Shown here one piece after another: positions 970 through 61,561 of a DNA stretch of 64,000 nucleotides (position 1 is its first letter; every line of letters begins with the position of its first letter). The notes beneath the pieces are model-generated. The model was not told the origin of the DNA and did not search any database. It was given only the letters and a program-made list of their open reading frames with translations. Made by a program: the position numbers and the translations under genes. The DNA is from Yuukianura sp. NJ FZ-2021 (lineage: Eukaryota): positions 7,998,001 to 8,062,000 of the forward strand of contig CM102289.1 in assembly GCA_046563655.1 (NCBI GenBank), written 5' to 3'.

Positions 970-1981
970 TTAATAATAACCACCGTAGTTACTGTAAGTT
1001 GGCCCAGCGTAACCGTAGCCACGCCCCTTCCCAGCTCCTCCAATGGCTCCACGTCGATAAAGTCCGCCACCGTATCCACCACCATAACCACCATGACCAC
1101 CACCGTAACCGCCATGACCACCGCCATAGCCACCATGACCACCACCAAACGGTTTTCCGTGGCCGTGGCCACCGTGGCCACCGTAACGTTGCGCATGTCC
1201 GTACTGTGGTCTCCATCCTTGCTGTCTCCAGCCACCGCCATGTCCATGGTTTCCGTGGTGGCTACCGTGTCCGTGCCCTTGATTTCGCTTAAAATGGTTT
1301 CCAAGTTTCCCACAGGCTCCGCTTACGTAATGCTCATGTTCAAGTCCTGGTCCTGGAGGGGCACCTAGACCGTGAAAAATCAAAAATTTGAACTGAATTT
1401 CAAAATTTCGATTATTTTTTTTGAAACTTACCGAAAGTTCCCGAGTGGCAACCTTTGTGGTCCCGGTAGTACCACCATCCGCCTTGACCCCAGCCACCAT
1501 AGCCTTTCTTTTTGCCGCGACCTTGTCTAGTGTAAGTGACATAGAGTTGTACTGGCTTAGCCTTTACTTGATACTCTTCATCTTCGTAACTCGACACAGC
1601 ATCAGCATAGTTGTCGTAACCTTGGATACTGGCGTGGGAACTCGGGTAAACTGGCACAGGATGATGGAGATCTTCGTAGTTTCTATGTGAATACTGTCCA
1701 TCAGTGACTACCGCAAGAACGCCAATCAACAGCACAGAACCCTAAGATGAAATTTCGAAAACACAATTTTTAAAAACTTTATTCAAAATATGTTTAAAAA
1801 AAACAAGTGTAGTTGGGTAAAATTTCAATTTGGTTGAAGAATTTGGCAAAGGTCATTGACCTCTTCGTTTTCCCTACGGCGAGTAACGCGTTTTATGTGT
1901 TGGCCGTAAATTTTTTACTAAAAAATTTTGGAATTGCTAATTTTATAGGTTTGAACTTGAACTTACCAGAAATACTTGCAT
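970..1981 (-). CDS. Secreted Gly/His/Tyr-rich protein (cuticular or glycine-rich antimicrobial-type); exons 1981-1967, 1741-1432, 1364-970
   Basis: GT-AG introns join in frame: MQVFL|GSVLLIGVLAVVTDG (signal peptide), then an acidic spacer, then GGHGGYG repeats ending YGGYY*. Confidence 0.85.
1850..1862. promoter_or_regulatory. Perfect IR1 nuclear-receptor palindrome AGGTCAtTGACCT (ecdysone-response-element type) in intron 1 of the Gly-rich gene
   Basis: Exact match to the IR1/PAL1 consensus. Function is inferred only. Confidence 0.4.
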
Positions 1982-3336
1982 GTTGACTGAGCTCTGAAAG
2001 CTTGACCCCTCGGAGAATTTGTGAAACTATGGACTACACGATGGCTGACTTAAGTTGACCACTTTCAATGCAAAACTAAATCCGTAGAGTTCAAAGTTTT
2101 CATTTTCCTTTGGAGAACTTTTGAACATATCAAATTCTGAAAGCATTTCTTCAAAATCCGGTTTTTGTTACCTCAGGGATACAATTGAATCAGAGGATTT
2201 TTGCGTCTTGTAAGGGCGAATGGACTCAACATTCTCCGCTCTACACAGATTTCATTACATCTAATTCACAAAAACCAACATCCGTAAGATTTTACGAAAT
2301 GAATCTGCAAATTTCGCATACAAGAAATATGATTTTGGATTAATTTTTAAATTTTCAAATTAATTACAATCTACACCAGATCTGCTTGTGTAGAACATGA
2401 GCAAAAAATCAGATTTTTTTTTTACACTTTTGTACATACTACTGATTTGATGAAAAGTACAATGTGTTTGCCTTAACCCATAGATTTACCTTGAGACTTT
2501 GTAGGAGTCATTGGACTTTTATTTTTTTCAACTCGTTTGTCCAGATAGCAAGACAGGACGCTTTTAATAAATCATTCAATGACCCCTAATCCTTACAAAG
2601 TTTTTTTTGCAGCTACTTTTTGAAATTTTTTAATATTCTTTTTCAAAAAAAATTGAAACTGAATTAAAAAGTAAAAGTGGAAGGCATGCAGGAAGCGTTT
2701 ACTTTTTCAAAGGGAAAACATTATGGTTCATGTACTGTGTGTTTCCATTTGACGATTTTAATGAAGGCGAGTTCTGAGAATCCTTCGACAATTCCAGCAG
2801 CGATGGTATGACCTTAAGTCGAACTTGTTCTAAAAAAGTATTTTTAACTTCAATTCTTTCAATTTACTAACGTACTGCTGCTGTAAGACCGTTCCAATAT
2901 TCCAGAAGTTTCGAGAAAGTTGCTGGCATGAATAAAACTCACGATAATGTTTCAATTGGGTTTGTAAAGTCATAGCTCTAAAACTATCTAATGTGGGCAG
3001 AATTAGAAAAAGTATTGAAATAAATTAAATTGTACCTTCATTTGGATGTCATAACTGAATTTCATTATTTTATTTCGCCTTCTGCGAAATTCAGAACGGA
3101 GACACGAGACCTTTTGGGGTATACTAAGTCGACTGATGTAGACTTCTTTAAAGAAGTTTTCTGTTCAAACAAACTTTTATTGCAGCAAATAGTAATTTTA
3201 TTGAATTCCGGATTTAGGGTTTTGACAGAATTTAAAACAAAAAAACTATAATCTCGGATAGGGTTTTAATAATTTTGAATTCCAAAGAGAATTGATCTTG
3301 CTTGGTTGCTACTAGTAAAACCATACTCAAGTTGTC

Positions 3337-3708
3337 TTATTTGCCTGGTTTAAAAGAGGCACACTTCTCATTCCTTACGTCGCATACAATTACTGATCCG
3401 CCTTTCTTGCTACTGCAGCAGTTCGCAAACTTATCCCATTCATCCTTGTTTCGAGCATCACAGACATAGCCCTTTTTACCACCTTCAATGTCTCGCTTGT
3501 AGCAAACATAAATGTTGTTCTTGTCCCGCTTCCCACCTTCCAGCTCCACTTCGCAGTCCATCGTATTTTTGTCATTGTAACTCGAAGAAATCTGCGAAAA
3601 AGTGGAAGCACATATAAGGGAACGATAGTATTCGCCTGCTGCTGTCTCCTTCGTCAAAGATGCAAAAATGACCATTGCAAAAACGGACCACAAGAGTACC
3701 TTCCCCAT
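3337..3708 (-). CDS. Secreted 8-cysteine small protein, copy 1 (123 aa), unknown family
   Basis: Signal peptide MGKVLLWSVFAMVIFASLTKETAA; pattern C-C-C-C-CC-C-C. The ATG follows a 5'UTR intron (~3713-3805, gtaag...cttag), and a TATAAATA lies near 3950. Confidence 0.85.
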   Translation of the reverse strand: MGKVLLWSVFAMVIFASLTKETAAGEYYRSLICASTFSQISSSYNDKNTMDCEVELEGGKRDKNNIYVCYKRDIEGGKKGYVCDARNKDEWDKFANCCSSKKGGSVIVCDVRNEKCASFKPGK

Positions 3709-5192
3709 CTCGCTAAGCAAAATATTCAAAAAATGATTAAGGACTTTGCTGGAAATCATTTATTAAGTTATAAGCAATACCAGGAACTTAAGTGAAAAGC
3801 CTTACCTAAAATTTCTGCCTTCTTTTTAGAAAAGTTTAACAAGCTCTCAAGGTCTGCTCAAATTTTTAAACAACAGAATCCAAACCTTTGTGTTAAAAGA
3901 GTAGATTGAAAATCTAGGTATGGCCAATTACTGCGCTCGTTTTTGTATTTATAGGGACTCGAAGCTATCTTTACCGATGGAGTTGTAAAAAAACGTGGCA
4001 AAGGTGATGAGTGAGTTAAAAGAACTTAATTTGGGTCTAAGGTCTTCCAGCTTTGAAGTGTCAATCTCAGCTTAGCTTTAATGGGGACATCTATTCAAAA
4101 AGTTCTAAAAAGTTGGTAGTATGAATAAATCTTACTATAATTTTCCCATTGGGTTCGTAAAGTCATAGTTCTAAAACTTAAGTCTAATGGGCAGATTTAA
4201 AAAAGAATTGAAATAAATTAAATTTTAAATTCATTTTGGGTGCTAAAACTGAATTTCATTGTTCTATTTCTCCATCTGCAAAATTCAGAACGTAGACACT
4301 TTGGAAAAAAGCTACAAGAAATGGTGCCCATAAGCATTTACTTCTGACCTTTGGTTCCTCCAATTATTCAAAACGGGAAATAATCCAACGCCGGACTTCT
4401 GCCACATTTATGCGTTATGTACTTTCGATCGTTCTACAACACATCAGCAACTTTTTGAAATTTTTTTTAGTATTCTTTCCCGAAAATATGTGCAAAATTG
4501 AAATTAAATTAAAAAGGAAAAGTGGAAGGCATGCAGGAAGCGTTTATTTTTTGAAAGAGAAAAAATTATGGTTCAGGTACTGTGCGTTTCCATTTGACGA
4601 TTGTAATGAACGCGAGTTCTGAGAATACTTCGACAATTCCAGCAGCGATGCTTAGGTCCTTAAAAAACGAAGGTTGTTCTAAATGGAAAATATGTTTAAC
4701 TTCAATTTTTTCAATTTACTAACTTACTGCTATTATAAGACCGTTCCAATATTCAAGAAGTTTCGAGAAAGTTGCTGACATGAATAAATCTCACCATAAT
4801 TTTTCAATTGGGTTTGTAAAGTCATAGTCCTAAAACTATCAAATATGGGCAGAATTAAAGAAAGAATTGAAATAAATTAAATTGTAAATTGATTTGAATG
4901 TCTAAACTGAATTTCATTATTATATTTCTCTGTCTGCAAAATTCAGAACGCAGACACCAGAACTATGGGGTTAAGTCGACTGAAGTAGACTTAAGTATTT
5001 TTAAATTAGTTTTCTGTTCAAACAAACTTTTATTGTAAAGAATAATTTTATTGAATTCCAGATTACGAGAGTTTTGACAAAATTTAGACAAAAAAAAACT
5101 ATATTCTCGGATATGGTTTTAATAATTTTTAATTCCAACTAGAATTATTGATCTTGCTTGGTAGGTACTAGTAAAGCCCTACTTAAGTTGTC

Positions 5193-5561
5193 TTATTTGC
5201 CTGGTTTTGGTCGTATGGAAGTGGCACACTTCTCATTAAGTGATTCGTTACATATAATTGATTCTCCGCCTCTGTAGTAAGCGCAGCAGTTTTGAAAGGC
5301 AGTCAAGGCTGACTTGGTTGGAGCATCACAGACATAGGCCTTTTTACTAAGCTTAATTTCTCGCATGTTGCAATTATAAATGTTGATGTTGCCATTTTCC
5401 TCTTTCAGGTACGCTTCGCATTCCATGGTATTTTTGTCCTGGTACGTCAGAGACCTATAGGTAGCACATATAATGGAACGATAGTATGCGCCTGCTGTCT
5501 CCTTCGTCAAAGATGCAAAAATGACCATTGCAAAAACAGACCACAACAGCACCTTCCCCAT
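5193..5561 (-). CDS. Secreted 8-cysteine small protein, copy 2 (122 aa), paralog of 3337-3708
   Basis: First 23 aa identical to copy 1, same Cys framework and C-terminal KPGK, same 5'UTR intron and TATA box (~5790). Confidence 0.85.
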   Translation of the reverse strand: MGKVLLWSVFAMVIFASLTKETAGAYYRSIICATYRSLTYQDKNTMECEAYLKEENGNINIYNCNMREIKLSKKAYVCDAPTKSALTAFQNCCAYYRGGESIICNESLNEKCATSIRPKPGK

Positions 5562-7870
5562 CTCGCTAAGCAAAATATTCAAAAAATGATTAAGGACTTT
5601 GCTGGAAGTCATTTATTAAGCTATGTAGCAGTACCAGGAACTCAGTGAAAAGCCTTACCTAAAATCTCTGTTTTTTTTACAGAAAGGTTTAACAAGCTTT
5701 GCTCAAATTTTCAAACAGAACTCAAGCCTTTGTGTTAAAAGGGTAGATTGAAAATCAAGTTATGGACAATTACTGCGCTCGTTTTTGTATTTATAGGGAC
5801 TCGGATCTATCTTTACCGATGGAGTTGAAAAAAAATGGCATAGGTGATGACCGAGTTCATGTTAAAAAACTTAATTTGGGTCTAAGGTCTTTTAGTTTTG
5901 TAGTGTCAATCTCAGCTTAGCTTTAATGGGGACATCTATTCAAGACGTTCTAAAAAGTTGATGATATGAATAAATCTCCCATTGGGTTTGTAAAGTCATA
6001 GTTCTGAAACTAAATCAAACATGGGCAGATTTAGAACAAGAATTGAAAAAAATCAAATTGTAAATTCATTTTGGATGCCAAAACTGAATTTCATTGTTCT
6101 ATTTCTCCATCTGCAAAATTTAGAACGTAGACACTTTGGAGAAAAAAAAACTACAAGATATGGTGTCTCTAAGCATTTACTTCTGACCTTTGGTTCCTCC
6201 AATTATTCAAAACAGGAAATAGTCGAATTCCGGGCTTCTGCCGCATTTATGCGTTATCTAATTTCAATCGTTGTACAACACATCAGCTACTTTTTGAAAT
6301 TTTTTATTATTCTTTTCCGAAAATATGTGCAAAATTGAAATTGAATTAAAAAGTTAAGGTAGAAGGCATGCAGGAAGCGTTAATTTTTTGAAAGAGAAAA
6401 AATTATGGTTCAGGTACTGCGTGTTTCCATTTGACAATTGTAATGAACGTGAGTTCTGAGAATACTTCGACAATTCCAGCAGCGATGCTTAGGTCCTTAA
6501 AAAACAAAAGTTGTTCTAAATTGAAAATATTTTTAACTTCAATTTTTTCAATTTACTAACTGCTGCTATAAGGCCGTTCCAATATTGTATCGCGTTCATT
6601 GTGCTGCACAAACAGTTTTCGTTCAAAAATTTCTCTTGGATTTCATCGTGACAGTCAACTTTAGCCAGCATTTGCCTTCCATAGTGCCTGCAATAGTATA
6701 AAACAAAAGCTGGCAAACCATATATAAAAAAAGTGTATTTTTTAAATACCTTTGTATGGGAGTCTTATTCCGAATGCCGAAAGAAAACATTTTGTAACAG
6801 GCAGAATCCATATATTCATCTAAAGTTTTCTTCAAAATCATTCCGAAGGTGATTAATCCAGCCCCAGTGATTAAACGCAGTAAGGCCGCCTGTTAAATGA
6901 AAAACACTGTTTAGCCCAAAATAACATTTCGTTAAAAGTTTATACAATTACCAAAACTTTCAGCCTAGTCGGTACATGACCAAATGGAAAACGAAACAAT
7001 TGATTAACATTGGCGCATATGGATGAAATGACAACTGCCAAAAGGCAGTCATACGGCCAAATTTTGATCCCGTTCCTTGTTTTACTGAAATTTCTCAATT
7101 CCGAATCCTGGACTAACAAAATGCTGAAGACTAAAGCAGGACATAAGAGAAGCTGTAAATGAAAAACACAATTTCGTACAAATTAGTTTTAGTATTTGTA
7201 AAAATTTAAATTATATTTTTGGTCTTACCAATGCTACGAGCCGAACCAGAACAACTAAACTGTGGCAAACCTTTGGTAAAACGTTTTTTAAAAGCTCTTT
7301 CAAAATTTGTGCCCTGGATAACTGATGAGTATTTCCAATCGAATTCTGAGGCCGATTGATTGGTAAAGTTTCTTTTAGGTCTTCCTCCATTTCAAAAACT
7401 ACTATCAACTAACCTAAAATTTCTAAATGGTTAATAATTAATTTATATCTGTTGTAAATCCATCCACGTTTTAATACTTTACTTGACTTTCCTAAGTGAA
7501 AGTTTCGAAATTTTTATGATTCAAAATCTGCTCCAGAAGAAAGGTCAAAGAGAAAGCTGCTTTCACTTCCAAGTAAAACCAAGGACAATACAACTTACAA
7601 ATTATAGAAAAATGTTCAAATTTAAAAAACAAACAATCCAAATAGATAAAAATTTCATTAATACATTTTTTGAAAATAAAAATAACATATTCCTTCTTTC
7701 GCACTAGCAGAGTTCTGAAACTGCAGTAGAACATAGCCTTAAACATAAATTTAGCAAAATTTTCAAAAAGTTTCAAACTTTTTCAAAAGTCTATGGGATT
7801 TCACACTGCAATAATGTAAAAATTTCAAAAAATAAAATTGTGTATTATGCTTATAAAGTAGTAATGGAAA

Positions 7871-10746
7871 TTAATGGTATCGAGTTAGCTGGTCACATGA
7901 AATGGATCTTGACTTGTTTCCTAACATTTTGCGATTACTTGTCGAATTAGCACTAAAAATTGGTATTCTGCTTTTGAAGTTAGTACTGGCAGAATTAGAC
8001 GTATTTTGAGGTATTTTTTGAACTTTGCATCTTTCACGACGAGCTACTTGAAGTAAAACTTCACCACTTTTGATACTTTTGAAAACATTTAAAGCTTCTG
8101 TATGTGTCACGCCAGCCAGAGGAGTTCCATTGATTGACAAAATTTCATCGCCTGAAACCAAAAATCAAAATATTAATTAACACCAAAGTTGATTAACAAA
8201 AATTGCTAAGTAATTGATTGAATACCTTCAGAAATTGTTCCATCTTCAGCCGCTTGCCCATTTGGAAAAATTCTTCTAACAAAAATGCCCATACTTCCTT
8301 TTGCCGAATCTTTCCCGCCAACGACGCTGAATCCCAAGCCTTTCCGAGTGGGGCCTTTGTGAAACGAAATTGTAAACAGCGTAAGTGATACGGATTTTAC
8401 TGACGCTTGTGTCATCGTGGGCGAATCTCTATCACGGACTTTGTTGCGCAAGCGCAGCGACGGAGCCGATTGACGATGACTCTGAGTAGAGCAATTTGTA
8501 ACTACTTCTGCTTTTTCAGTGTTAGCTAAACTTGTGTTTTCATTTTCCAAATTCGACACGCTGTTGACTGCTTCTGCGTAAACTTCTTCCAGCGCTTGTT
8601 TCAAAAGTTCTTCATGAATTGAAGTTTTTTCATAATCGGAGCATCCACTGCTGCTACTTGAATTAACGTCTTCCATTTGCTCAGCAATTGGCAACTTTCC
8701 AGAATTTCTTGGCGATTCTTGTCCATTTCTGGTGGAGTCACTGTCATAGCCGCTCTCTTCCTTCTGATTTAATTCTCCACCAAAAGTGATTGATTCGTCA
8801 CTGGAATTCAAAATGTCGCCAATTGAAAAAGAACGTCGTCTCTTGTTTCTTAGACTGTTTTCAACTATGTCTTCCCACTGTGGTGTTTTATGCATCAAGT
8901 CAATTCGGATTTGACTCAGCGGGTCTGTCAGCCGTTGATTTCCATCGAAGCAAGTCAAACTAGCGTTGGACAAAAGTGGGCTTTGACCTAGGTCATGTTC
9001 ATGCTCTAGGATCAAGTTTCCCATACTGTGATACGAATTTGGCAGATCGGTTGACCTGAAGTTTACTGAAGGCGTGGATGGTTCTTCTGGAAGTGAAGAC
9101 AGTTTGGATCTAATGTAAGCATGCGGAAAAAATGAACGTTTGACAACAGCTCGAGCATTTCCCAATCTGTAACTTCCGCCACTAAAAACCGAAATTGACG
9201 TTCCTCCTTCCAGGGTTGACGAATCATCTTCCAAGTAAACACGGGATGTGAAACAGAGGTTGTCGCAGCTAGTGGACTTTGCTAGCGGCTGCGGCTGGAA
9301 TGACCTTTGACCTCTGCTGGTAGATTCAAGCAATTCAACGGTGGTTGGAGATTCTTGGTCCAAGTCTTGAGTGTCCACGCCCTTGTCGATTTTCGTTTTA
9401 GACGACTTCGGCTTGTTAGGTTTCAGTAAATTGCGTAAGGATTCAACGCGGCTTAAATTTCGTCTTAAGATTCCTGGATTTTGGTTAGACGATGATCTCT
9501 CAGAGGATTTGGTTGAACTTTCGAAATTTTCAGGATCTTCGTGTTCTTCTTCATAAGTTTGCTGGAAAACTGTGGCGGACTTTTTTGAATTGTATCTCGA
9601 AAATCCGATTAAACTTTTGTCGAGTGTCATTGAATTCAGTTTGTCGCTGGATCCCGACCGGCGCAAAGTGTCCCATGTCTTGCTGGCAACTTTTCTGCTC
9701 CATGTCGAAACGCCTAAAAAAAAATGAAAATTCAGCATCAAAATTGGATATACAAAAGTAGCAACTTAAGATTTAGAAAAAACGCCAACATTTCTGCAGT
9801 AACAAGAACTGAAAGGTTTTATAAATTGCAAATTGAGTGTCTTTCCCTTCGGATTGTTTCCTAGTTTCACAGCTTCACATTAAAAATTTGCCATAGTGTA
9901 AAAAATGTTGTTGCAAAAAGACCGCAAAAATGTTACAAATTCCGAAAGTACTGTGAAAATTTACCGGTAACTTCCGTTTCAAGGAAAACAAAATTGAAGC
10001 AGTCATCTTCCGTTGTTGGAAGAAACGTGAAGAAAAGTCGAAGTGATTAATCTCTTGGCAGTACAGAACCGCTGAACCGTTTAACTGTGCGCATGCGCTC
10101 AAGGCAAAAACTTTCTGAACAAATTGGCGCCATTATGATTAATAAGCTAACCTGACAAAAATACAATAGCAAAAAAAAGTGAAGATGGAAACGCAGAAAG
10201 GTAGTTTTTACTTTTCAAAAGTAAAAATTGATTTGGATCTTGCAGGATGCGGTTTTAGATCAAAAGAACAGTATGATTCAAACAATTCTTTTTAAAAAAA
10301 AAAACTTGCCGCTTTGTCCTACTTTTCAAAAACTTAGGAAGGTACCAGGGTAGTAATCAAGTTATGGATTTTCCTGGAGGTCATTGACCCCTAACGAGAG
10401 GTCAATGACCTCTGGGAAATATTTACTCACCAGTAAATGAACCCGTTGTGTTGTTGTTCCGTTGTGAATCTTTGAGCGAAGATGAACAAATTTTGACAAG
10501 TCCGCCTTCAATTTTGAGATGGTGGTCAGGAGTAGTCGGTTGATGACAGGTTCTATTGTTGTTGTTGCTTGAAGTGTCGGTGGCGGAAGCTTTGAAAATC
10601 AAATTCGGTGGACCTTGACCTGCTCTTCCGTTAGACTGGCCAGAACTGTTGTCTGGATGGATAGCAACGGCGTGTAGCGTAGCAACGCCAACCAGTTGTG
10701 GGTCATCAAACTCTCCCAAAGATTTGCGACGGTTGAAGATCCTCAT
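7871..10746 (-). CDS. Ser-rich protein with a single C-terminal PDZ domain (PDZD2/pro-IL-16/big bang-like PDZ), ~694 aa; exons 10746-10431, 9713-8226, 8151-7871
   Basis: Two phase-1 GT-AG introns restore the frame. PDZ signature [13 protein letters not shown]...[30 protein letters not shown]...[11 protein letters not shown] further acceptor at ~10927 implies upstream 5'UTR exon(s). Confidence 0.85.
10378..10411. promoter_or_regulatory. Pair of IR1 palindromes (AGGTCAtTGACCC and AGGTCAaTGACCT) in the PDZ-gene intron
   Basis: One perfect and one single-mismatch ecdysone-response-element-type palindrome, 8 nt apart. Confidence 0.45.
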
Positions 10747-25876: not shown

Positions 25877-28800
25877 TCAATATGGCTGAAATATAAAAAC
25901 CAAAATTAAGTAAATGCAATTTGAACTACTTTTCACTAATTTAGTGGAGAGTGTAGATTAATCACCTGTGAAAATTGCATTCCCTGGGAGAAGTTTCCGC
26001 TTCCACCGCCTCCACTGGATCGATCATTTCGAAACTGTTGACTATTGAAGCGATGCTCTTGCGACATATAACTGTCGTTCTGACTTTGAAAATCCAAGTC
26101 ATCTCTGAAATCCTGGGACAGCATCTGGTTCTGCGACATCTGACCGTACTAAAACATGGACGAAAATATTTATCAATGATCGGACATCATGAAGTTAAAT
26201 AGGTTACATAGGAAGTCATGATTACTAGACTAAAATGACTGATTTGGGGCGAAGCCCCAGCAAGCTTATACAGCACGCTGGTAGACACTAAAAATACTTA
26301 CCGGCTGCGTCATACGCTGCGGTTGCGTGTTATACTGCTGACTTCCGCCAAGTCCGTGCTCTCCCTGTGACATTCCGAAGCCTTGATGTGGTTGTGACAG
26401 CATCGACTGGCTGTTACGATCACCATATCCTCCGCCAATCCCACCGCTGGCCCCTCCTGACCCACCAAGCGGCGGGAACATTTCATCGAGACGTTGTTGC
26501 TGTTGTTGTTGCTGAGTTTGACGTTGTTGATACGGTGATCTCCCTGCTGCAGGATTCTGGTTTCCTTGTCCAGCTTGAGCTCCTGGAGTCCTTTGATAAA
26601 ATGGCGAAGGATTTCTTGGTCCAGTCATCTGGTTGGGATTGTGTCCCTGAGCTCCCATTGGTTGATTGAAGAATCCAGACGGAATTTGTGCAATATTCAT
26701 GAACATCCCAAGTGGAACGGGACAGTTTGGTGGAAATGCTGGTTGTGGATCGATTCTTCCATTGTATCCAGTATACTGATCTCCAAATCGAGCCAAGTAA
26801 TTTGCAGCAGCCATTGGCTCATGTCCCATAGGTGGTTCACCACCGCGACGGTGAAAGGCTGGTGCTGGTCCTCGTGGTCCACCCATCATATTTCCTTGTT
26901 GAGGTCGAAATGTTTCACGAGCATCGAACGTTCTGTTGGCCATAAAGTGAGCTCCAGGATTAATCAAGTTTTCCATTTTCTTTGGTTTTGGAAAAGTCAT
27001 TGCCGATTCCTTGAGATTTTGAAGTGGTCCTTCAACAAGTAGATGCTGGTCCTTGAAGTAGTGAATCAAATGGTTCCATAATTGGTTTTTCGCTAGTACT
27101 TTTGGATTTCCAACAACAATGATCCCATACTTGGCTCTCGTCAGAGCAACGTTGAGACGACGTGGGTCACTCAGAAATCCAATTCCTTGAGCTTCGTTGG
27201 ACCGGACACACGATAAGATAATAATGTCTTTCTCCCGACCTTGAAATGCGTCGACACTGGCCACTTCGACTTCAAGGTACAACTTTGTGTTCAAGGGCCC
27301 TTGATTTTGCATGTACTGAACCTGGTAAGCCCTTTGACCTTCATATGGAGTGATGATTCCAATTTGTTCTGGGCGCATGCCGGCTTTCAAGAACTTCGTA
27401 GTGATTTTTTCGACGTTAGAGGCTTCTGTTCTGTTCAAGTAAGATGTTCCACTTCCAGAAATTTCTTCACATCCATGTGTAACATAGAAGAACATAGGTT
27501 TTTCTGGATTTGGCCAAGGGAAGTCAAAAGCCAGTCGACGATCATGTGATCCAACTCCATTCTGCAAAGAGCCTTCATAGAAGAAGTCTGATGGAAATCG
27601 AGACAAGTCTGGATGCATTCGATACTGGACGTCGAGCCGGATTGGTCGAATTCCGACAACGACAAGTCGTTCGAACAACGATTGAGACAATCCTGCTGCA
27701 GCGGCTTTCTTGCACATAACGACTGGGCCAAGTTGACAGTGGTCACCGACAAGGATCAGCTGTTTGGCCCCCATCACAACTGGTACCATACATTCCGGCT
27801 CTGTTGCTTGCATTGCTACATAAAAATCAATCAATCATAAATCATAATAATTAATCAATTGAATCATACTTAATTAATTAAGGAAATGTCGTGATTACCT
27901 TCGTCAATCAGGACACATCCGAACTTGAGCTTTGAAAGACGCGGATCCCCAGCCGATACACAGGTACAGGAAATAACATCGGCTGCTTGTAGCACAAGCG
28001 TTTCAACTCTCCGCTTTAAACTGATGTATCGCTTCTCGTCAGCAACCGAAAGCTCTCCGGTTTCATCTTTCAGTTGTTGCAGTTTTTGCAGGTCTCCGCC
28101 CTCGGCTTGACTAATTTTCCGAATTTGATTATGAAGCGATAGAAAAGAAATGGGCGAATCCAGGTTTTCACGAGACTTTGCGCACAATCGAACGACTTTG
28201 AGGCCAGTCTGATGGATCTTGGTCGTCAGCTGATCAACAGCGGTGTTTGATGGTGCACAAACAAGGATCGTACCGTTGTTCATCTTAGCAAGATGGTAAA
28301 TGATTGAAGCCGAAGTTACCGTCTTTCCAGTTCCTAGAAATCATGCGGGAAGAATTAAGTAAAAGTATAACGTTTTAGAAAAAAACACAAGAGAGTAAAA
28401 TTTACCAGGAGGTCCCTGAATCAAAGTCAGCGGGCGCTGCAACGCTTGTTTTACAGCAAAAGCCTAAAAACCAAAAGTAAAGCCAAATTAAAAATTAACT
28501 TTTTAATTTCAAAGCTGCAACGAAATAAGCCGGTTTAGTAAAAAAATCATTAATTAGTCAAAAATCAGCCAAGTAATTAATTACCATATTTCCCGGCGTA
28601 TATCAATTCCTGCCGTCAAACAGCTGATGCAGCAAGGTGCGGGATATACGCCGTGAAACAGGGTAACGGACGCTCCAATGCAACATTTACCTGCGATCGA
28701 TTCAAGTCCGGAAGATTCAAGCCCGAGAAATTCTTCGGTAAATTACAACGAAGCACTAGCTCTTCAGCGTCATGTCCAAGTAAGCGATGGTACAAGAAAT

Positions 28801-30419
28801 TCGACACTGCAGTGTCATCCAACGAAAATCGATTCAATGCTGCCTGCATTCGGTCAAATGAGGTTGACTTCCAGACAAATTCTATGGCAAAATCCTGAGT
28901 ACATTCAACTGGTGCTCCTGAACTCCATCTCAGTTTCAGCTCAATCCCAATTTCATCTGAAAAGTTGTCCGGAACCTTAATGACATTGCCAACTCCACTC
29001 CAGCTCTTATGTTGGTCTCCTACATAACGTATCTTGAGTTCATCTCCTTGAACAAGTCGAAGATCCGAATCAACGACATTCGGGAGTGTAAAGTAAGCAG
29101 TAATTCGCTTATTGAGTCCCACGTCCCAGCGAACTTCGATGTTCTCATGTGTCTGGTCTTCTTTGATCTTCTTATCGTAGTCGGCTTCAAGTTTGACCAA
29201 TGGATTCAAAACTAGTTCGTAGTGGTAGCCGTCGTCGTATCGTAGCAACACATGTTGCGGCTCCTCGTCTACGCCGGGTTTTTCCAAATCTTGAAATGTA
29301 GCATCCGTGTTAACTTTCCAGAGTTCTTCCATTTTGATAATTTGATTGTTGGTGACATGACGTGCTCGAGCCATCTCGTCCCCCTTCGGCTCTTTCACCA
29401 GCCAACTGATGAGGCTACGATCAGCAATCAGTGGTTTCCAGGCGTCAGCATCCCTAATAATAACGTTAACACGCTGAATCAATCACTTTAATTCAAAACT
29501 TAACAAATGTATTTGTTGAGCATTTGGAATCGTAAGTTAGGTTCACATACCAGTTCATATCCTTCAGCGTATTCTGGGTTGAACACGGTTGTCGGCATAA
29601 AAGCACCACCACAGAGTCATTCTTGGCAGGAATATATCCCAAGTTGAATACATTTTTACCACCACAGGCGTAGCATTCCAGTAGAGTCTCCCCAAGTGGA
29701 CCTTGACGGTGAAGGATGACTTGCTGGAGATAAATTAATAAGTTACATTTAAGAAAAATTAATCAACTGAAATTGCAACTAACCTTATGGCGCGACCGGA
29801 CTAAATGAGCCAAAATATGCGACCCCGTGGCTGCTGCACTTTTCCCATTACAAAACCACTTCTTACAAACGTTGCACATCACGACTGCAGCAGTGTCGTG
29901 TGTACCGCAATACCGGCATGCGTGCTCCGGAGCTTTCTAAAGCAGAAATAAAAATGAAATTACACCATACTATAGCTAATGTCAAAATTTTAATAATTAA
30001 CCTGAAAGACAGTTCCTTCGTCGTCATCGTCCTCGAATCGAAGTTCGTCCAGACCTTGACTCAAGTCCCCCACAAGCGAGTCCTCGTCATCATCCTTACT
30101 TTTGGTCTTCGCAGTCTTGAAGATGTCTTCGTCAATGCTAATATCGTCGTCATCCTGTAAAAAAGGAACAGCAATAGCTACGGAAACACGAATGCATATT
30201 ACAGTCGAGTAAATTGTGTTCAAGTACCGATGAAGCAGCACTCTTCGACGATAAAGAACGACGTTCAAGTTGCGAGAAATCGTTCTTCGGAAGGTCTCCT
30301 TCATCTCCGTAATCGAATGCATCGAAATCCCCATCCCGCATTTGGGTAGCAGCTCCTAGTTGGGATAGCCCAGTCCGCTGAGTTGAATTTTCGAAGAAAT
30401 CAAAGTTCTGACTCGACAT
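25877..30419 (-). CDS. UPF1: Regulator of nonsense transcripts 1 (SF1 RNA helicase), multi-exon
   Basis: CH zinc domain (HACRYCG...[18 protein letters not shown]), [70 protein letters not shown], and an SQ-rich tail ending FSQ|PY*. Confidence 0.97.
28581..28666 (-). other. Long RNA hairpin inside a UPF1 intron (intron 28464-28690)
   Basis: Arms 28581-28604 and 28643-28666 are reverse complements at 21 of 24 positions (plus one G-U on the UPF1 strand), with further pairing possible inside the loop. Confidence 0.6.
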
Positions 30420-43901: not shown

Positions 43902-45210
43902 ATGGATGATACTGGTTGTCCACGATGTAAAACTACAAAGTACAGGAAGTCGAACATCAAGTTGCTGGTCAATATTTGTGGCCATGCCCTCTGCGACAGT
44001 TGTATTGAATTACTCTTTGCTAAAGGTAACTCTCATTGTTATGATCGTTTTGGGCTGAGTTGTTTTGGACGGGGGATCGAGGTTATTAATTGTCAGGGGA
44101 ATATACGTGAGATACTAATCGTTTCTGTAACTTTAGGTGGCGGACCTTGTCCGGAATGTGGAATTCCGCTTCGTCGATCTGGATTTCGTGTTCAGCTGTT
44201 TGACGATCCCGTAGTGGAAAAGGAAGTTGACATTAGACGAAGGCTGCTAAAAGACTACTGTAAACAGGAGGCCGATTTTGAAACGCTCCGAGACTACAAT
44301 GATTACTTGGAAGAGGTACCTACGATATTAATCTAAGCAACTGACGAAAATGCATGAGGAAGGTTTGAGGTTTAGTAATTCTGTTTTTGCTAATTTTCAG
44401 ATTGAGACACTCGTTTTCAACCTTGTTCATAACATTGACGTCGTCGATACCAACAAACGTATTGATGAGTACAAAAAGGCAAACAAAGAACAAATTGCCG
44501 CATCCAGAGCAAGGTTGAATCCAGAACTGTTGGAATTGGAAACACTTTTAGAGGAAGAACGACTCCTCGCCGAACACAGGAAGTTTGAAAATACAGCTTT
44601 AGAAAAGGACGAGAAACTGAGAAAGCAAAAAACCAAAGAGTCCCTTGTTGATGATCTCATGTTTTCCGATGCCGACGCAAACGCAATTCTGGCTTCACAC
44701 AAATCGCAGGAAGAACATGAACTTGCTGAAACTCACGTCGTGGAAGATCTAACGAAACGACGACAACAAATCATCGCTGAGACGGCGGCTCGTTTGAAAA
44801 TGATCAAAACTCAAGGCGCCTTACCGTCATCCTCACGACCACTGTTTTCCACTGGCATTACCGTTGGTGGAACTTCTAGTGGTTTTCTCCCTGTACCTAA
44901 AAAGTCTGAAGAAGTATTGTTCAAGTATACTGAACCGCCGCAGTTCAACCATGGTCCGCCTACCCCTTCGTTTGAAGATTTGCAGTCCATAGCTTCTTAT
45001 CCAAGTAATCTTCCTCCGTTTGGCAGAACTGTTCGATATCCCGAAAAGAGGGATAAAGCGGGTGGATGTCACGCGGAGTACCAAGTACGTCGAGCTCTAG
45101 GCGATGCATTTGCAGACATTTTCTATAATCCTGGCACTGATGCTGCAATTAAACAGTATCCGTTTGCACCGGATGGAGAATCGCCAGCTTTTGGTTATCA
45201 TCGTCTATGA
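43902..45210 (+). CDS. MNAT1: CDK-activating kinase assembly factor MAT1; exons 43902-44025, 44137-44315, 44401-45210
   Basis: N-terminal [13 protein letters not shown]...CGHALCDSC...[35 protein letters not shown]-terminal AGG...RALGDAF. Confidence 0.95.
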
Positions 45211-48436: not shown

Positions 48437-51400
48437 TTAGCCCGGTGGTGTTGGACCACTCCATGTTCGTTTGTAAAATGGTAAAATTAGAAGGAAAATT
48501 CCAGACGAAACGAACGTTACGAGGAAAAAGACCCAAAATAAGATGCGATCAACAACTTGAGCTGCCAGTCGCCACTCGGAGACCAAAATCTGCTGTCGTT
48601 CGTTGTCAGTCTGCTTCTGTAGTAAGTACCTAATGGATTTCCCTATGTCATCTTCACTCTGAGAATCAGTACTTGTAGTATTGGCAGCAGTATCCAGTAC
48701 ATTATTGGGTGGATGTAGTTGGTGATGTGATGATCGATGATTGTGGTTTCTGTTTCTGACATGGTGACTTTCTGTCGTATCGTTCCCATTTCTGGATTCT
48801 TCGTCACATGGACAGGGAACAGGAACTGAAGATTTGACACTGTTTTGGACATTGCTTGGAGGTGCGTTGAGTCGTGTCGTGACGGAAGCTGTGGACGTCC
48901 GACCATATTGTTCTTGATGGTGACTTATTAAAACAGGCTTGTTGTGAATTAGGCCTCCAAGGGCTCCTGGCAATTCTTGTTCAAATGGATAGGACACGGC
49001 GAGGTCATGGCGCTGGCGCATAATAAATTGCTTGTCTTCGGCAGGCAGAAGGTACCTGCAAGAAATTTTTTTTAAATCACAAATTAAAAAAAAAAATCAA
49101 AATTTTCTTTAAATTTTTTCGTTTTTCTGAAAATTTTGATGCATTTTATACCTCAACCAGTTCGGAACAGGTTCTACTCTAGGACCGAGGTAGTGCAAGT
49201 TGAGAACAATTACGGTAACAACGACAGAAATGGATGTTATGATCATTACAGCAGTCAGGTAAATTCCTGGAAAATTTTGATCAACATTTTTGACAAAATT
49301 TGCAAACTTTTGAAGTTTTTTCACAATTTTTTCTACAAAAGTTTCGGTAGCTTGCCTATGAGCGGAATAGATTCGGACGTTTCGGGCATCTTTTCGGCGA
49401 TTGCCAGCATAAATACGGAGAAAGCCAGGAGAACGGTAATTCCCAAAGCAACTTTCTCTCCAGAATCCGGTGGCAGGAAAAAGACTAGGAGCGTCAAAAA
49501 CGACAACAGGATGCACGGAACAATGACATTGAAGACGTAAAATCTGAAACCAAAAACATGATTTCCACTCAAACTTTTCAAAATTTTTTCATCAAAAACG
49601 TACAATGTTTTGCGCCTAATTATTAAAGTAATTGTGACATCCGGAAATGGTTCTGGACAGCATGAGTAGTAAACCACGTTTCGTTGAAGTTCTGCTCCAA
49701 GCAGATCCCATTCTCCACTTGGAATGTAGTTGGACAAGTCCACTTCTGATGTTCGATTGGTCACGTCAACCTGACAAACAAATTAGGTCAAAGTTAATTA
49801 AAACCTTGGTCATATCACTCCATCGACCATTTCATATGCTCATATCTTAGTAAATACTTCCGCAGTATCTCATCATTGTGCTATGCTGTTGGGGGGCACT
49901 TTATAATTGTTTCTAAAGATTTGAAGGAAAAGAGATTCGAAACTTTCTAAATTTGGGTGGGATGACCTTCTGATCCTGTTGTTTTGCTCCAAATCTTTGA
50001 CGTTTGTTGTTCACAGTTTATTTCTGGTATGAAACCATTTACATTGGTGATCATTTCAGAAATTACATTGTGTTTTCATATTTTCATAGGCAGCAGAGGG
50101 AGTAACTATTAACAAAGCAGTGAGACGAGAAACACAAATCATGAACTTGGTGAGTCAATTTTCTTAAAGTCAGCGTGCGAAATTATGAATTGCTTATAAT
50201 TGCTCAAAAACCTTTAAAAAAAACAATGAAAATGATTGTTGTGTATATATTTTGGACAGATCTTGATTGTAAGCGTTATACTTGCGGTATCGCAGGCTGC
50301 GATTGGGCAGCATTATGGGACAAAAGCAGGTCATGTTGAAGAAGTGACTACGTACAAACCAAAAGTTCATGAAGTGTACAGTCAGATAACGCCGAACATT
50401 GGCGACGGGAAATTCGAGTACTACGTTGAAACAAGCGACGGTTTAAGAGCCGAGCAAGTTGGATACCTCAATGCCAGACCACAAGCATCACAAGTTCATG
50501 AAGGCGCCTACACTACGTTTGATGAAACCGGAAAAGTTGTTATGGTTAATTACATTGCGGATAAAGGCGGATTCCGTGTTTCCGGACACAGTCTACCCAC
50601 ACCTCCTCCAGTACCGATTGAACAAGTGAAAGCGCGAGAAGACATTTTGAGACAACAGGAAGACATTCGCCAACAGCATTTGGCCAATTTCAGAGCTGCG
50701 CATGCCGTTTTTGGACGAAAATATTAAAAAGTCGCTCAATTTCTAAAAATTTCTTGATTTCTAAATTTTAAAGCAAAGTGCAATCAATTGCACATTTTCT
50801 TAACTTTTTTCTTGTAAACTTTTACTATCTTTGGAGTGGATTTCTTGGAAATGTTTTTCCCAAAATTCTGCCTTAATTTTTTTAATAAAAATGTTTTCTG
50901 TTTTCAAAGCGTAGATTTTGAGATTTGAAGAAAAAGAAATTTCATTAAGTCTACCTGAAAACCGTTGTACGTCCACGATCCAAGTTTTAATTTGCAGATT
51001 TGATCATCAAAGGGAAAGTACGTGACATCCACTGGACTGAAAAAAAGTAAAGTAAAAGTCTAATTAAACTTCATCTTTTTTTTTCTGAAGGAGAAAGTCA
51101 AGTAGGTACGTGTCCATGAATTTTAAATTTTCACGCTCTTTTCATATTATTTACCATGTAGATCTGAACTTTGTTGGAGGCGGCCAAAAAATCTTTCCAT
51201 CGTGATTCACCATAGCTCTGCTGGCAAAATATCCACGCGTGTAGTCGTCCGCTCTAAAAAATGTACCAGAAAAAATTGATTCAAAATTTAGAAAAATTGT
51301 AGATTTTATGATCAAGATTTTTCAAAAAATGATTTTACGAGTTGTATAGGACGATATCTGGAAGCCAAATTTTATCACAGGGCAATCGTATTGACGTCAT

Positions 51401-60400: not shown

Positions 60401-61561
60401 CTTCTTCTAGCACTTCCAAAACACTTTCACCCTCGGAAATATTCATCAGAAATCGCGGTTTGGTCTTTGCTTTTCGTCGTTATTCAAACTCTTGAAGATC
60501 AGAGAAAGTGGAGTCTTAATTAAGTCCATCTCAAACTACTGCGCATGCCCACAAACATGGTAAAAGCTGAAAGTGACAGGCACTTGAATTATACACCAAC
60601 TCAAACCTACACAAAACTACGTTAGGTTAACTTACGAATGCAAATCAATGTTGTTCAAAACCTGACCTTTGAAATTGAATATTGTTGACAAGTTTTAATT
60701 CTTGTTTTGTAGTAAACCATTTTAGGACCACAAAATAAACAAAATTGCGACAGCATCAAAAAGGCTCCACTTTCTACTAAACCTTGGTGAAAGTTGAGCG
60801 ATGTGCAGAGATAGTGAAAGTGAGTAAAACGTAAGGACGCTGAATTTAAAAGTTTCGGTGGAAAATTTCAAAAAGTCGGAAATTACGTTACGGTGCAGTT
60901 GTCAAAATGAAAAATGAACAAAGTAATGACACAGTTGAGGACACAGCAGAGGAAATGCTAAACTCCGACGCGGCGGAGCTTAAATTGTGACTGAATACAG
61001 AAAGACTCATTAGGATGTTAATTGAACCGGAAAAGCTTCCAGACTCATAAAAATTTAAACTTTTCAAAAAAGAGGGCCTCACCATATCAAAAATTTGTGT
61101 AAGCGTAATGCCCACTTCGATGAGGATCGGTTGAGAAGCGTTCCGAACCGGTCGGACGTCCTTTTCATATCCATCCATCAAAAAAGTAAGCAGCGTTTTC
61201 TCCTCTTGCTCGACTTTCTTTGGCCATTTTCTGCCTACTTGTTCAGGCATTGCAGATTCTGCCAAAGTTGTAGTCTTTTCACGGTTTCCAATTAGCACCT
61301 CCGCGGTCGACTGCCCTTGGGCGGCCGTTGTGGACGCCGCGGTGGATGAAACGACGGTGCTCAAATCCAGGTTCTCATTACTCTCTAATTCTTTCCCAGA
61401 AGACTTTGAACTGGAGCTGGAAAATCCAGAAGGCGATTTCCACGGTGTCATTTCGTCAACCACACCGTTGTTGTTGTCATCCACGGTTCCAGGATTTGGA
61501 ACATTTACTCCCTGCTGAACACCGCCTACGCTCATCTCTGCTTTCTCAAATGCCATCGAAT
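48437..61561 (-). CDS. Nicotinic acetylcholine receptor alpha subunit, alpha9/alpha10-like invertebrate group; exons 61561-61083, 57677-57633, 51448-51339, 51253-51155, 51036-50955, 49770-49604, 49543-49356, 49266-49152, 49055-48437; 5'-most exon unresolved
   Basis: [26 protein letters not shown], Cys-loop [20 protein letters not shown], vicinal YYSCC, M1-M3 with [16 protein letters not shown], and [11 protein letters not shown] before M4. Confidence 0.95.
50141..50727 (+). CDS. RR-1 chitin-binding cuticular protein nested antisense in an nAChR intron; exons 50141-50149, 50260-50727
   Basis: [16 protein letters not shown] signal peptide; R&R consensus [12 protein letters not shown]...[25 protein letters not shown] followed by [10 protein letters not shown]. 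Confidence 0.92.
52790..53432 (-). CDS. Putative 186-aa two-transmembrane protein nested on the same strand in a large nAChR intron; exons 53432-53193, 53110-52790
   Basis: A phase-0 gtaag...tag intron joins two ORFs in frame across a hydrophobic segment ([23 protein letters not shown]). A second hydrophobic segment and a Cys-rich C-terminus follow. Confidence 0.6.
54276..54551 (-). CDS. Possible small membrane protein (91 aa) nested in the same nAChR intron
   Basis: Acidic N-terminus [11 protein letters not shown], two hydrophobic stretches and a basic KKRK end. No homology recognised; could be a chance ORF. Confidence 0.25.
   Translation of the reverse strand: MNQTDKEEELGVQKVANVDLLQIADVEMAEKMRQLICSSNRYFILLNFLFISVPFFPAPSFLFEKEKLILECLSTLFLFGMCFLVLKKRKM

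Follow-up and report, generated by a model that had tools for sequence, protein, structure and literature searches.

We analysed a stretch of 64,000 nucleotides, referred to below as the window, from contig CM102289.1 of assembly GCA_046563655.1 (positions 7,998,001 to 8,062,000), with respect to two neighbouring minus-strand genes, here called A and B, which lie between positions 3337 and 5561 of it. Both encode small proteins with a predicted signal peptide and eight cysteines, and both lie in units of one tandem duplication. The DNA that encodes the mature proteins has diverged more than the non-coding DNA around it, whereas the signal peptide is unchanged. The genes, their predicted parts and the repeats which carry them are the following.

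3337 to 3708, minus strand: gene A, coding sequence including the stop codon, 123 amino acids (open reading frame list, BLASTP), with the stop codon's first base at 3337
3634 to 3708, minus strand: predicted signal peptide of gene A, codons 1 to 25, with the mature eight-cysteine domain at 3340 to 3633 (hydropathy)
5193 to 5561, minus strand: gene B, coding sequence including the stop codon, 122 amino acids (open reading frame list, BLASTP); 5561 is the A of the ATG
5490 to 5561, minus strand: predicted signal peptide of gene B, codons 1 to 24, with the mature eight-cysteine domain at 5196 to 5489 (hydropathy)
2626 to 4461, no strand: tandem repeat unit 1, with gene A (BLASTN of unit 2 against the window, full alignment)
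4463 to 6300, no strand: tandem repeat unit 2, with gene B (BLASTN, alignment)
6300 to 6586, no strand: third, partial copy, the distal 3' segment (X) of the unit, in which homology stops at ...CCGTTCCAATATT (three-way alignment)
2898 to 3105 (copy 1, downstream of gene A), 4092 to 4299, 4750 to 4957 and 5937 to 6134, no strand: direct repeat 'r' of about 215 nucleotides (BLASTN)

The duplication is head-to-tail, has a unit of about 1.84 kb and spans positions 2626 to 6586. Within the window, BLASTN aligns unit 2 with unit 1 at 83.0% identity (1888 columns, 102 of them gap columns), and the 287-nucleotide fragment of a third unit with 4463 to 4753 at 92.1% over 291 columns. Each full unit contains a single intact minus-strand open reading frame, which is gene A in one and gene B in the other. 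The direct repeat is found on both sides of each gene; its four copies have a mean column identity of 84% and hold the inverted pair CTGAATTT...AAATTCAG, and a fifth copy was not found in the window. It may have been left behind by an earlier duplication, or it may be a small mobile element through which the unequal crossing-over took place. Further paralogues of the genes were looked for with tblastn and a hidden Markov model (HMM) of the family over the 1585 six-frame open reading frames of the window, and only A and B were retrieved.

The N-terminus of both proteins resembles a signal peptide: one Lys is followed by 12 residues (4 to 15) with a mean Kyte–Doolittle value of 2.69, small residues at −3/−1 provide candidate cleavage sites around residues 24 to 25, and neither protein contains a later stretch of comparable hydrophobicity. 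The mature proteins comprise about 98 residues, with an isoelectric point of about 8.5 and eight Cys which probably form four disulfides. Both proteins end in KPGK. In secreted peptides, amidation is classically signalled by a Gly with a basic residue next in the chain.

Comparison of the two proteins by BLASTP gives 72 identical residues in 127 columns (57%; 9 gap columns; E 4e-42). Residues 1 to 23 are identical strings, and the 22 comparable codons of the signal region contain three nucleotide differences, all of them synonymous. In the mature part, 46 of the 96 aligned codons encode different amino acids, and five in-frame indel events, one of them at the border between signal and mature parts, involve nine codons. 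All eight Cys are aligned and kept (seven of them with the same Cys codon), and short motifs beside the Cys have also stayed fixed. The original prediction had described each of these traits (an identical start with synonymous changes only, about half of the mature residues shared, several in-frame indels and eight retained Cys), and the counts agree with it. The nucleotide identity of the two copies by partition is given below.

Distal 5' flank: 90.3%
TATA box to splice donor: 88.3%
Putative intron: 94.6% (5 mismatches in 92 sites)
Signal-peptide codons: 95.5%
Mature codons: 74.0% (75 mismatches in 288 sites)
3' untranslated region (UTR): 89.3%
Distal 3' flank: 87.1%

The pooled non-coding divergence K is 0.118 (156 mismatches in 1429 aligned sites), and the contrast in mismatches between the mature codons and all non-coding DNA is strong (Fisher p 1.8e-10). 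Mature coding DNA has thus evolved faster than its non-coding neighbours, as had been claimed from the sequence at first sight; the accompanying description of the flanks as aligning almost base for base was overstated, since they are 87–95% identical and contain 19 indel events. A 60-column sliding scan found 16 positions with at most 45 identical columns, nine of which lie in the mature coding region, while the other seven coincide with flank indels. At the opposite extreme, the intron and the signal stretch together have 8 mismatches in 162 sites, compared with 151 in 1337 in the other non-coding DNA (p 0.010), and the longest identical run, of 57 nucleotides (3754 to 3698), falls between the 95% and 99% quantiles of a permutation (50 and 59). 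This low divergence from intron to signal peptide could be a conversion tract or could reflect constraint on splicing and translation-start signals.

Nei–Gojobori counts over the 96 mature codons give 66.1 nonsynonymous differences in 230.3 sites and 10.9 synonymous differences in 57.7 sites, corresponding to a nonsynonymous divergence (dN) of 0.362, a synonymous divergence (dS) of 0.218 and a ratio (omega) of 1.66. The Biopython estimators give 1.75 (NG86), 2.54 (LWL85), 2.27 (YN00) and 1.89 (maximum likelihood), and pairwise likelihood with GY94 gives 1.99–2.15 under three codon-frequency models. When the Cys codons, or codons within one to three positions of gaps, are dropped, omega is 1.93–2.36. 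All estimators therefore place the mature region above 1 (1.66–2.54), and dN was equal to or below dS in 4.4% of 5000 bootstrap replicates. The differences are distributed over codon positions 1, 2 and 3 as 27, 30 and 20, the reverse of what is seen in a constrained gene. In the signal peptide dN is 0 and dS 0.236 (three differences); judging from its codons, it is under purifying selection.

Measured against the non-coding DNA the excess is unambiguous: the proportion of nonsynonymous sites which differ in the mature part is 0.287, versus 0.109 of non-coding sites (Fisher p 2.2e-11). In simulations without constraint at a divergence of 0.118 or 0.141, none of the 4000 runs per setting reached 46 amino acid differences, the means being 22–26, and at a divergence equal to dS 2.1–2.8% of the runs did so. 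These results support the rapid diversification of the mature domain which the original prediction had proposed. Mature dS (0.22; 0.16–0.22 across codon sets) is unsaturated. The refuting condition named with the original prediction, a dN/dS well below 1 combined with saturated dS, is thus contradicted on both counts. Nothing suggests a greater age for the mature region than for its surroundings, because its dS equals that of the signal peptide and does not significantly exceed the non-coding divergence (p 0.085).

The transcription and processing signals which could be read from the sequence, all of them on the minus strand, are present at corresponding positions in both copies.

3713 to 3805, minus strand: putative 93-nucleotide 5'UTR intron of gene A (GTAAGG...TTGCTTAG), read from the sequence, 94.6% identical to the copy of gene B
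5566 to 5658, minus strand: putative 93-nucleotide 5'UTR intron of gene B, read from the sequence
3946 to 3953, minus strand: TATAAATA (TATA) box of gene A (motif scan), within a 37-nucleotide run (3961 to 3925) identical between the copies
5788 to 5795, minus strand: TATAAATA (TATA) box of gene B (motif scan)
3965 to 3970 (gene A) and 5807 to 5812 (gene B), minus strand: AGATAG (GATA-type) site (motif scan)
3197 to 3202 and 3176 to 3181, minus strand: two AATAAA polyadenylation signals of gene A (motif scan)
5047 to 5052 and 5029 to 5034, minus strand: two AATAAA polyadenylation signals of gene B (motif scan)

The predicted splice donor is AG|GTAAGG, and 93 nucleotides on, the pyrimidine-rich acceptor TTTTGCTTAG|CGAGATG is located four nucleotides before the ATG. 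The AATAAA signals lie about 135–160 nucleotides past the stop codon. Based on this placement of TATA box, splice sites and polyadenylation signals, each gene is predicted to begin with a short exon that has no coding sequence, followed by an intron in the 5'UTR and by one exon that holds the whole coding sequence. The AGATAG site is conserved in both copies 17 nucleotides upstream of the TATA box, which is not strong evidence. An in-frame ATG further upstream (3759 in A, 5612 in B), which would add 17 residues, was rejected as the start. We took the proximal ATG instead, because the upstream one lies inside the predicted intron and the homologue described next begins directly at its signal peptide.

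Relatives outside the window are extremely few. A phmmer search with protein B against 1.84 billion representative proteins gave one match at E ≤ 0.001, a protein of 122 amino acids (P0001; E 5.8e-5, 32% identity) encoded at positions 256 to 624 of a 1894-nucleotide metagenome contig (L001). Like A and B it begins with a signal peptide, and it shares their eight Cys together with the flanking motifs (YY-S--CA, DK-TM-CE, NIY-C, YVCDA and F--CC). The alignment of A, B and P0001 contains 28 invariant mature columns, and the first and the last Cys are 84–89 residues apart. The GC content of the metagenome contig is 0.379 and that of the window 0.367; the two share no nucleotide similarity outside the coding region. 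With P0001 as the outgroup, 11 mature sites are derived in B and 4 in A, and at 31 sites all three proteins differ; by this polarisation both copies have changed, B somewhat more.

A search with a profile of the three sequences recovered P0001 alone among 84 candidates, and a scan of metagenome contigs led to the same single relative. None of the 18 candidates from a word-indexed protein search with A was a relative, none of 67 pattern matches in viral contigs and none of 34 in prokaryote genomes could be confirmed, and an exact look-up did not find A or B in the protein collection. In Pfam-A, hmmscan assigned no family to A (E ≤ 10) or to P0001 (E ≤ 1), and B had one sub-threshold chance match (PF10597, 13.5 bits, where the cut-off is 33). 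The known arthropod Cys-rich domains (WAP, Ly6/three-finger, single VWC, chitin-binding, Kunitz and others) gave no Pfam-A profile match for A, B or P0001, and the sequence-profile search of the PDB returned a nanobody only (E 1.5). The Cys order of A and B, C-C-C-C-CC-C-C, equals that of the WAP four-disulfide core, whose Cys span roughly 45 residues; the span in A and B is about twice as wide (84–89), their predicted fold has two long helices, and neither matches WAP in Pfam at E ≤ 10. As far as these sequences tell, the family is real, with a third member that carries the same Cys and motifs, and it is lineage-restricted, with three known members and no described relative. The suggestion that the family was undescribed is therefore upheld at the sequence level.

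The predicted fold was examined with AlphaFold. The model of the whole of protein A has a mean predicted local distance difference test score (pLDDT) of 61.3 and a predicted template modelling score (pTM) of 0.56, with DSSP elements E29–35, H46–57, E67–74, E78–85, H88–100 and E104–110. The model of mature P0001 (L001:322–621) reaches a pLDDT of 78.3 and a pTM of 0.74, with elements E4–12 (and E15–18), H20–30, E43–49, E57–63, H66–79 and E84–89. In both models the predicted element order is beta-alpha-beta-beta-alpha-beta, as in KP6 proteins. The KP6 fold has a four-stranded antiparallel sheet, on one side of which lie two helices, and two beta-alpha-beta split crossovers (PMC12382754), and its characteristic disulfides, beta1–H2 and H1–beta3, tie the helices to the sheet (PMC12382754, PMC12018790). 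In both models invariant Cys are placed in beta1, H1, beta3 and H2, and the remaining ones in beta2, in H2 (as the CC pair), in beta4 and in the tail at the C-terminus.

In a VIA-align comparison with 48,161 representative chains, the top three for both models were KP6alpha, KP6beta and Zt-KP6-1. Of the more than 1,200 ferredoxin-like matches, precisely these three represent small secreted proteins with disulfide bonds, and for the P0001 model they score 1.2–2.3 Z units above the first generic match. KP6beta also ranked first in a comparison with 998 chains. In the ESM Atlas feature search with protein A, the fourth-ranked cluster was one of BAS4 (PF28414; score 0.85), and for mature P0001 a BAS4-bearing cluster, 15% of whose members carry BAS4, came first among the named clusters (0.78); BAS4 is counted among the KP6-fold proteins (PMC12382754). 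On balance we regard a KP6-like fold as somewhat more probable than not. The sole structural resemblance which emerged is thus to a toxin and effector fold and not to a conserved housekeeping one.

A separate observation was made with Foldseek against BFVD, where the top two matches of mature P0001 were uncharacterised proteins of 92–98 amino acids from Armadillidium vulgare iridescent virus and Wiseana iridescent virus. Their E values are 3.3e-3 and 5.8e-3 (none at E ≤ 0.001) and their TM scores 0.51–0.57. Both viruses infect arthropods, and the matches hint that the modelled fold also circulates in arthropod viruses.

Beyond the duplicated genes the window codes for animal genes, namely UPF1, MAT1, a PDZ protein and exons of a Cys-loop channel. 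The features outside the duplication are listed below.

26266 to 29482 (minus), 44332 to 45210 (plus), 48437 to 49096 (minus) and 60888 to 61598 (minus): conserved animal genes (UPF1 helicase, MAT1, exons of a Cys-loop ligand-gated channel)
6590 to 7400, minus strand: small multi-exon gene of unknown family, which the third partial repeat copy abuts
7871 to 9765, minus strand: PDZ-domain gene, beyond the preceding one, with the PDZ domain split over exons 8206 to 9765 and 7871 to 8164
970 to 1741, minus strand: open reading frames for a Gly/Tyr/His-rich low-complexity protein with GGYGGGHGG-type repeats, adjoining the duplicated genes
308 to 670: GC-rich nested tandem repeats based on TGTCACC, with periods of 7, 21, 34, 49 and 54, in surroundings of 32–35% GC

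The Gly/Tyr/His-rich protein has no Pfam match; from its composition it looks like a structural glycine-rich protein of the cuticle or eggshell type. Rfam gave no matches in the window at gathering thresholds. The UPF1 exon shares at most 57–68% identity with the proteins of the collection, and in a FastTree phylogeny of 49 UPF1 sequences, built with 48 of the 120 listed matches (the named ones across arthropod orders and eight unnamed), the sequence of the window forms a long branch that is sister to Collembola. The low identity and the long branch next to Collembola indicate a poorly sampled arthropod lineage. The source is probably a springtail-like hexapod without an annotated close relative, an assignment which is tentative and based on a single gene.

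Taking the locus, the tests of divergence and the models together, the reading which on balance we prefer is that A and B are lineage-restricted tandem genes for secreted eight-Cys proteins under diversifying selection, with a KP6-like scaffold and a role that is most likely antifungal or antimicrobial by analogy. One duplication carried the promoter, the 5'UTR with the putative intron, the signal peptide, the coding region and the 3'UTR together. Since then the signal peptide has remained without amino acid change, and about half of the mature positions have been replaced at a rate above both the local non-coding rate and their own synonymous rate. With the eight Cys held fixed, the exported protein would be a compact, disulfide-locked alpha/beta sandwich, the exposed helices and loops of which would be free to change. 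We infer diversifying (positive) selection on the surface of this scaffold, favouring new variants. By analogy only, the proteins may be secreted antagonists of other organisms, likely antifungal or antimicrobial, with an arms race against their targets driving the change. The analogy is with UmV-KP6 and Zt-KP6-1, which inhibit fungal growth; an antimicrobial function is predicted for most proteins with the KP6 fold (PMC12382754).

Several results weigh against this interpretation. Concerning selection, the excess of omega over 1 is only marginal when measured against dS: the one-sided Fisher p is 0.089 for all 96 codons and 0.017–0.094 for trimmed sets, and the likelihood-ratio test against omega = 1 gives two-sided p values of 0.06–0.105, as can be expected where 96 codons of a single pair of genes are compared. 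Multi-nucleotide events may inflate dN, because 22 of the 49 differing codons carry two or three changes and kappa is below 1. Concerning the fold, the models were built from three sequences, and Foldseek against the PDB found no match at E ≤ 0.001 for either of them, with PII, RRM and other ferredoxin-like proteins ranked first. The ESM Atlas matches are leads only, since both scores are below 0.9. No KP6 or BAS4 family was matched by sequence profile (Pfam-A, E ≤ 10 for A and B and E ≤ 1 for P0001), a miss which does not exclude the fold because KP6-like families are defined by structure. Concerning the role, neither 5' flank contains a kappaB-like site (GGGRNNYYCC-type), which is likewise not strong evidence.

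The strongest competitor concerns the fold. The resemblance to KP6 may carry no meaning, the proteins having some other small disulfide-rich fold for which AlphaFold returned a common ferredoxin-like arrangement from three sequences; the generic Foldseek ranking and the low pLDDT of the model of A would then be expected. A generic arrangement would not be expected to bring exactly the KP6 representatives, secreted disulfide proteins which equal A and B in their small size, to the top three places with both models and, with the better one, by a clear distance, or to place Cys in the four elements that the KP6 disulfides join, and the ESM Atlas led independently to BAS4. We consider this alternative a substantial one, though on the doubtful side. 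The known members are KP6 alpha and beta, the killer-toxin subunits of Ustilago maydis virus P6, and the fungal proteins Zt-KP6-1, BAS4, ECP28, SIX5 and AvrLm10A. A and B share with them a small size, predicted secretion and membership of a sequence-hypervariable family, together with the predicted element order and Cys positions, but they have no detectable sequence similarity to them, eight Cys versus the four which form the two characteristic KP6 bonds, longer loops (about 98 mature residues versus 74–79 in the solved KP6 chains), and a place in an animal genome with a putative intron of the spliceosomal type and a TATA promoter. An inventory of fungi and plants lists KP6 proteins from fungi only (PMC12382754). 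Among the open-access publications listed for KP6 proteins, judged by title, none concerns animals, and among those listed for KP6 with arthropod terms none was relevant.

The role of the proteins is the next point at which readings differ, and it is here that other rapidly evolving secreted families are informative. In the Hessian fly (Mayetiola destructor), the SSSGP genes form tandem arrays in which the promoter, the UTRs, the signal-peptide region and the intron are conserved and the mature region is diversified, with pairwise dN/dS of 1.1–18.8, dN of 0.04–0.31 and dS of 0.00–0.20 (PMC2955719). The A/B pair shows two gene-level traits of this class, with non-coding and signal DNA 87.1–95.5% identical versus 74.0% in the mature codons, and with point estimates of dN/dS above 1 in the mature region whose significance is marginal against dS and strong against non-coding DNA. 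Its dN (0.36) and dS (0.22) are just above the ranges given in that paper, and omega is comparable. The differences are that no sequence relatedness was detected (no insect protein was retrieved in the protein and profile searches), that the organism is not a gall midge, given the grouping of its UPF1 with Collembola, and that A and B have a conserved eight-Cys scaffold. Unlike in SSSGP, no homogenising mechanism is needed for A and B, because their flanks are 5–13% diverged.

Conotoxins, funnel-web spider toxins and mussel MgCRP-I also combine a conserved signal (pre/pro) region with a hypervariable mature peptide and an invariant Cys framework, and have evolved by duplication and positive selection (PMC3823881, PMC4029134, PMC4558851). 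A and B share the conserved signal, the variable mature part, the fixed Cys and the duplication. Those peptides, however, mostly have 10–40 residues, a pro-region and knottin-type or similar folds, whereas A and B are without a pro-region, have a domain of about 98 amino acids and are predicted to form an alpha/beta sandwich; no venom apparatus is implied.

It follows from these parallels that the same mode of evolution could serve another role, such as that of a salivary or otherwise secreted effector acting on a host or food organism, a venom-like peptide or a reproductive protein. These roles fit the evolutionary signature equally well as an antimicrobial one. The KPGK ends, with their Gly-basic amidation signal, would suit such a peptide, and some KP6-fold proteins of fungi, SIX5 and AvrLm10A, act in host manipulation and not as toxins (PMC12018790). 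The sequence itself gives no pointer to a tissue. The best structural matches of A and P0001 are, on the other hand, the antifungal proteins KP6alpha, KP6beta and Zt-KP6-1, and we regard the alternative roles as possible, if rather unlikely. A more specific version of the antifungal reading, which we hold to be unlikely as a whole, is that with A and B the KP6 fold has its first representatives in animals, as secreted antifungal toxins of a springtail-like soil arthropod which diversify after tandem duplication; the genes could have been acquired from fungi or fungal viruses, and the paralogues might act jointly like KP6 alpha and beta.

Two further explanations concern the divergence itself. 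Under relaxed constraint, one or both copies would drift near-neutrally towards loss or a trivial subfunction. That omega = 1 is not rejected at the 0.05 level, and that B is more derived than A relative to the outgroup (11 sites against 4), would be consistent with this. Relaxation cannot, however, lift protein divergence above the neutral rate, and the observed amino acid divergence is larger than neutral change at the local non-coding rate yields (no simulated run at that rate reached it, and the contrast with non-coding sites has p 2.2e-11); every point estimate of omega is above 1; and both reading frames are intact, with all five indels in frame, all eight Cys kept and a signal-peptide dN of 0. 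We therefore find relaxed constraint quite improbable. About equally improbable, and last in order, is the notion that A and B are old paralogues whose flanks were homogenised by gene conversion (concerted evolution) while the mature region escaped: the low divergence of intron and signal stretch and the 57-nucleotide run are in line with it, and for the Hessian fly analogues concerted homogenisation has been suggested (PMC2955719), but mature dS is unsaturated, equal to signal-peptide dS and not significantly above the non-coding rate, the flanks at 5–13% divergence and with 19 indels are not freshly converted, and the excess is one of nonsynonymous over synonymous change, which conversion of the flanks cannot explain.

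Diversifying selection on a secreted eight-Cys scaffold thus remains the interpretation we favour. The pattern at the gene level, in which a variable mature part is combined with a conserved signal and conserved flanks, is already known from Hessian fly salivary genes, conotoxins and others. What is new is the family itself, which has no described relative, and, if it holds, a KP6-like fold in an animal. A coding part which outpaces the DNA around it is a mark of molecular arms races, and the present locus is a clean case, in which the duplication is single and recent, the export signal has been left intact, the cysteine scaffold is fixed and the loops have been rewritten. Should the KP6-like fold and the antifungal role not be confirmed, the locus would be a well-documented but ordinary instance of a known evolutionary pattern. 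If both are true, animals would be added to the range of a fold known from the killer toxins and effectors of fungi, and the family would provide a candidate effector of the antagonism between arthropods and fungi in soil, as well as a new scaffold, stabilised by disulfides, on which extreme variation of the surface is tolerated.

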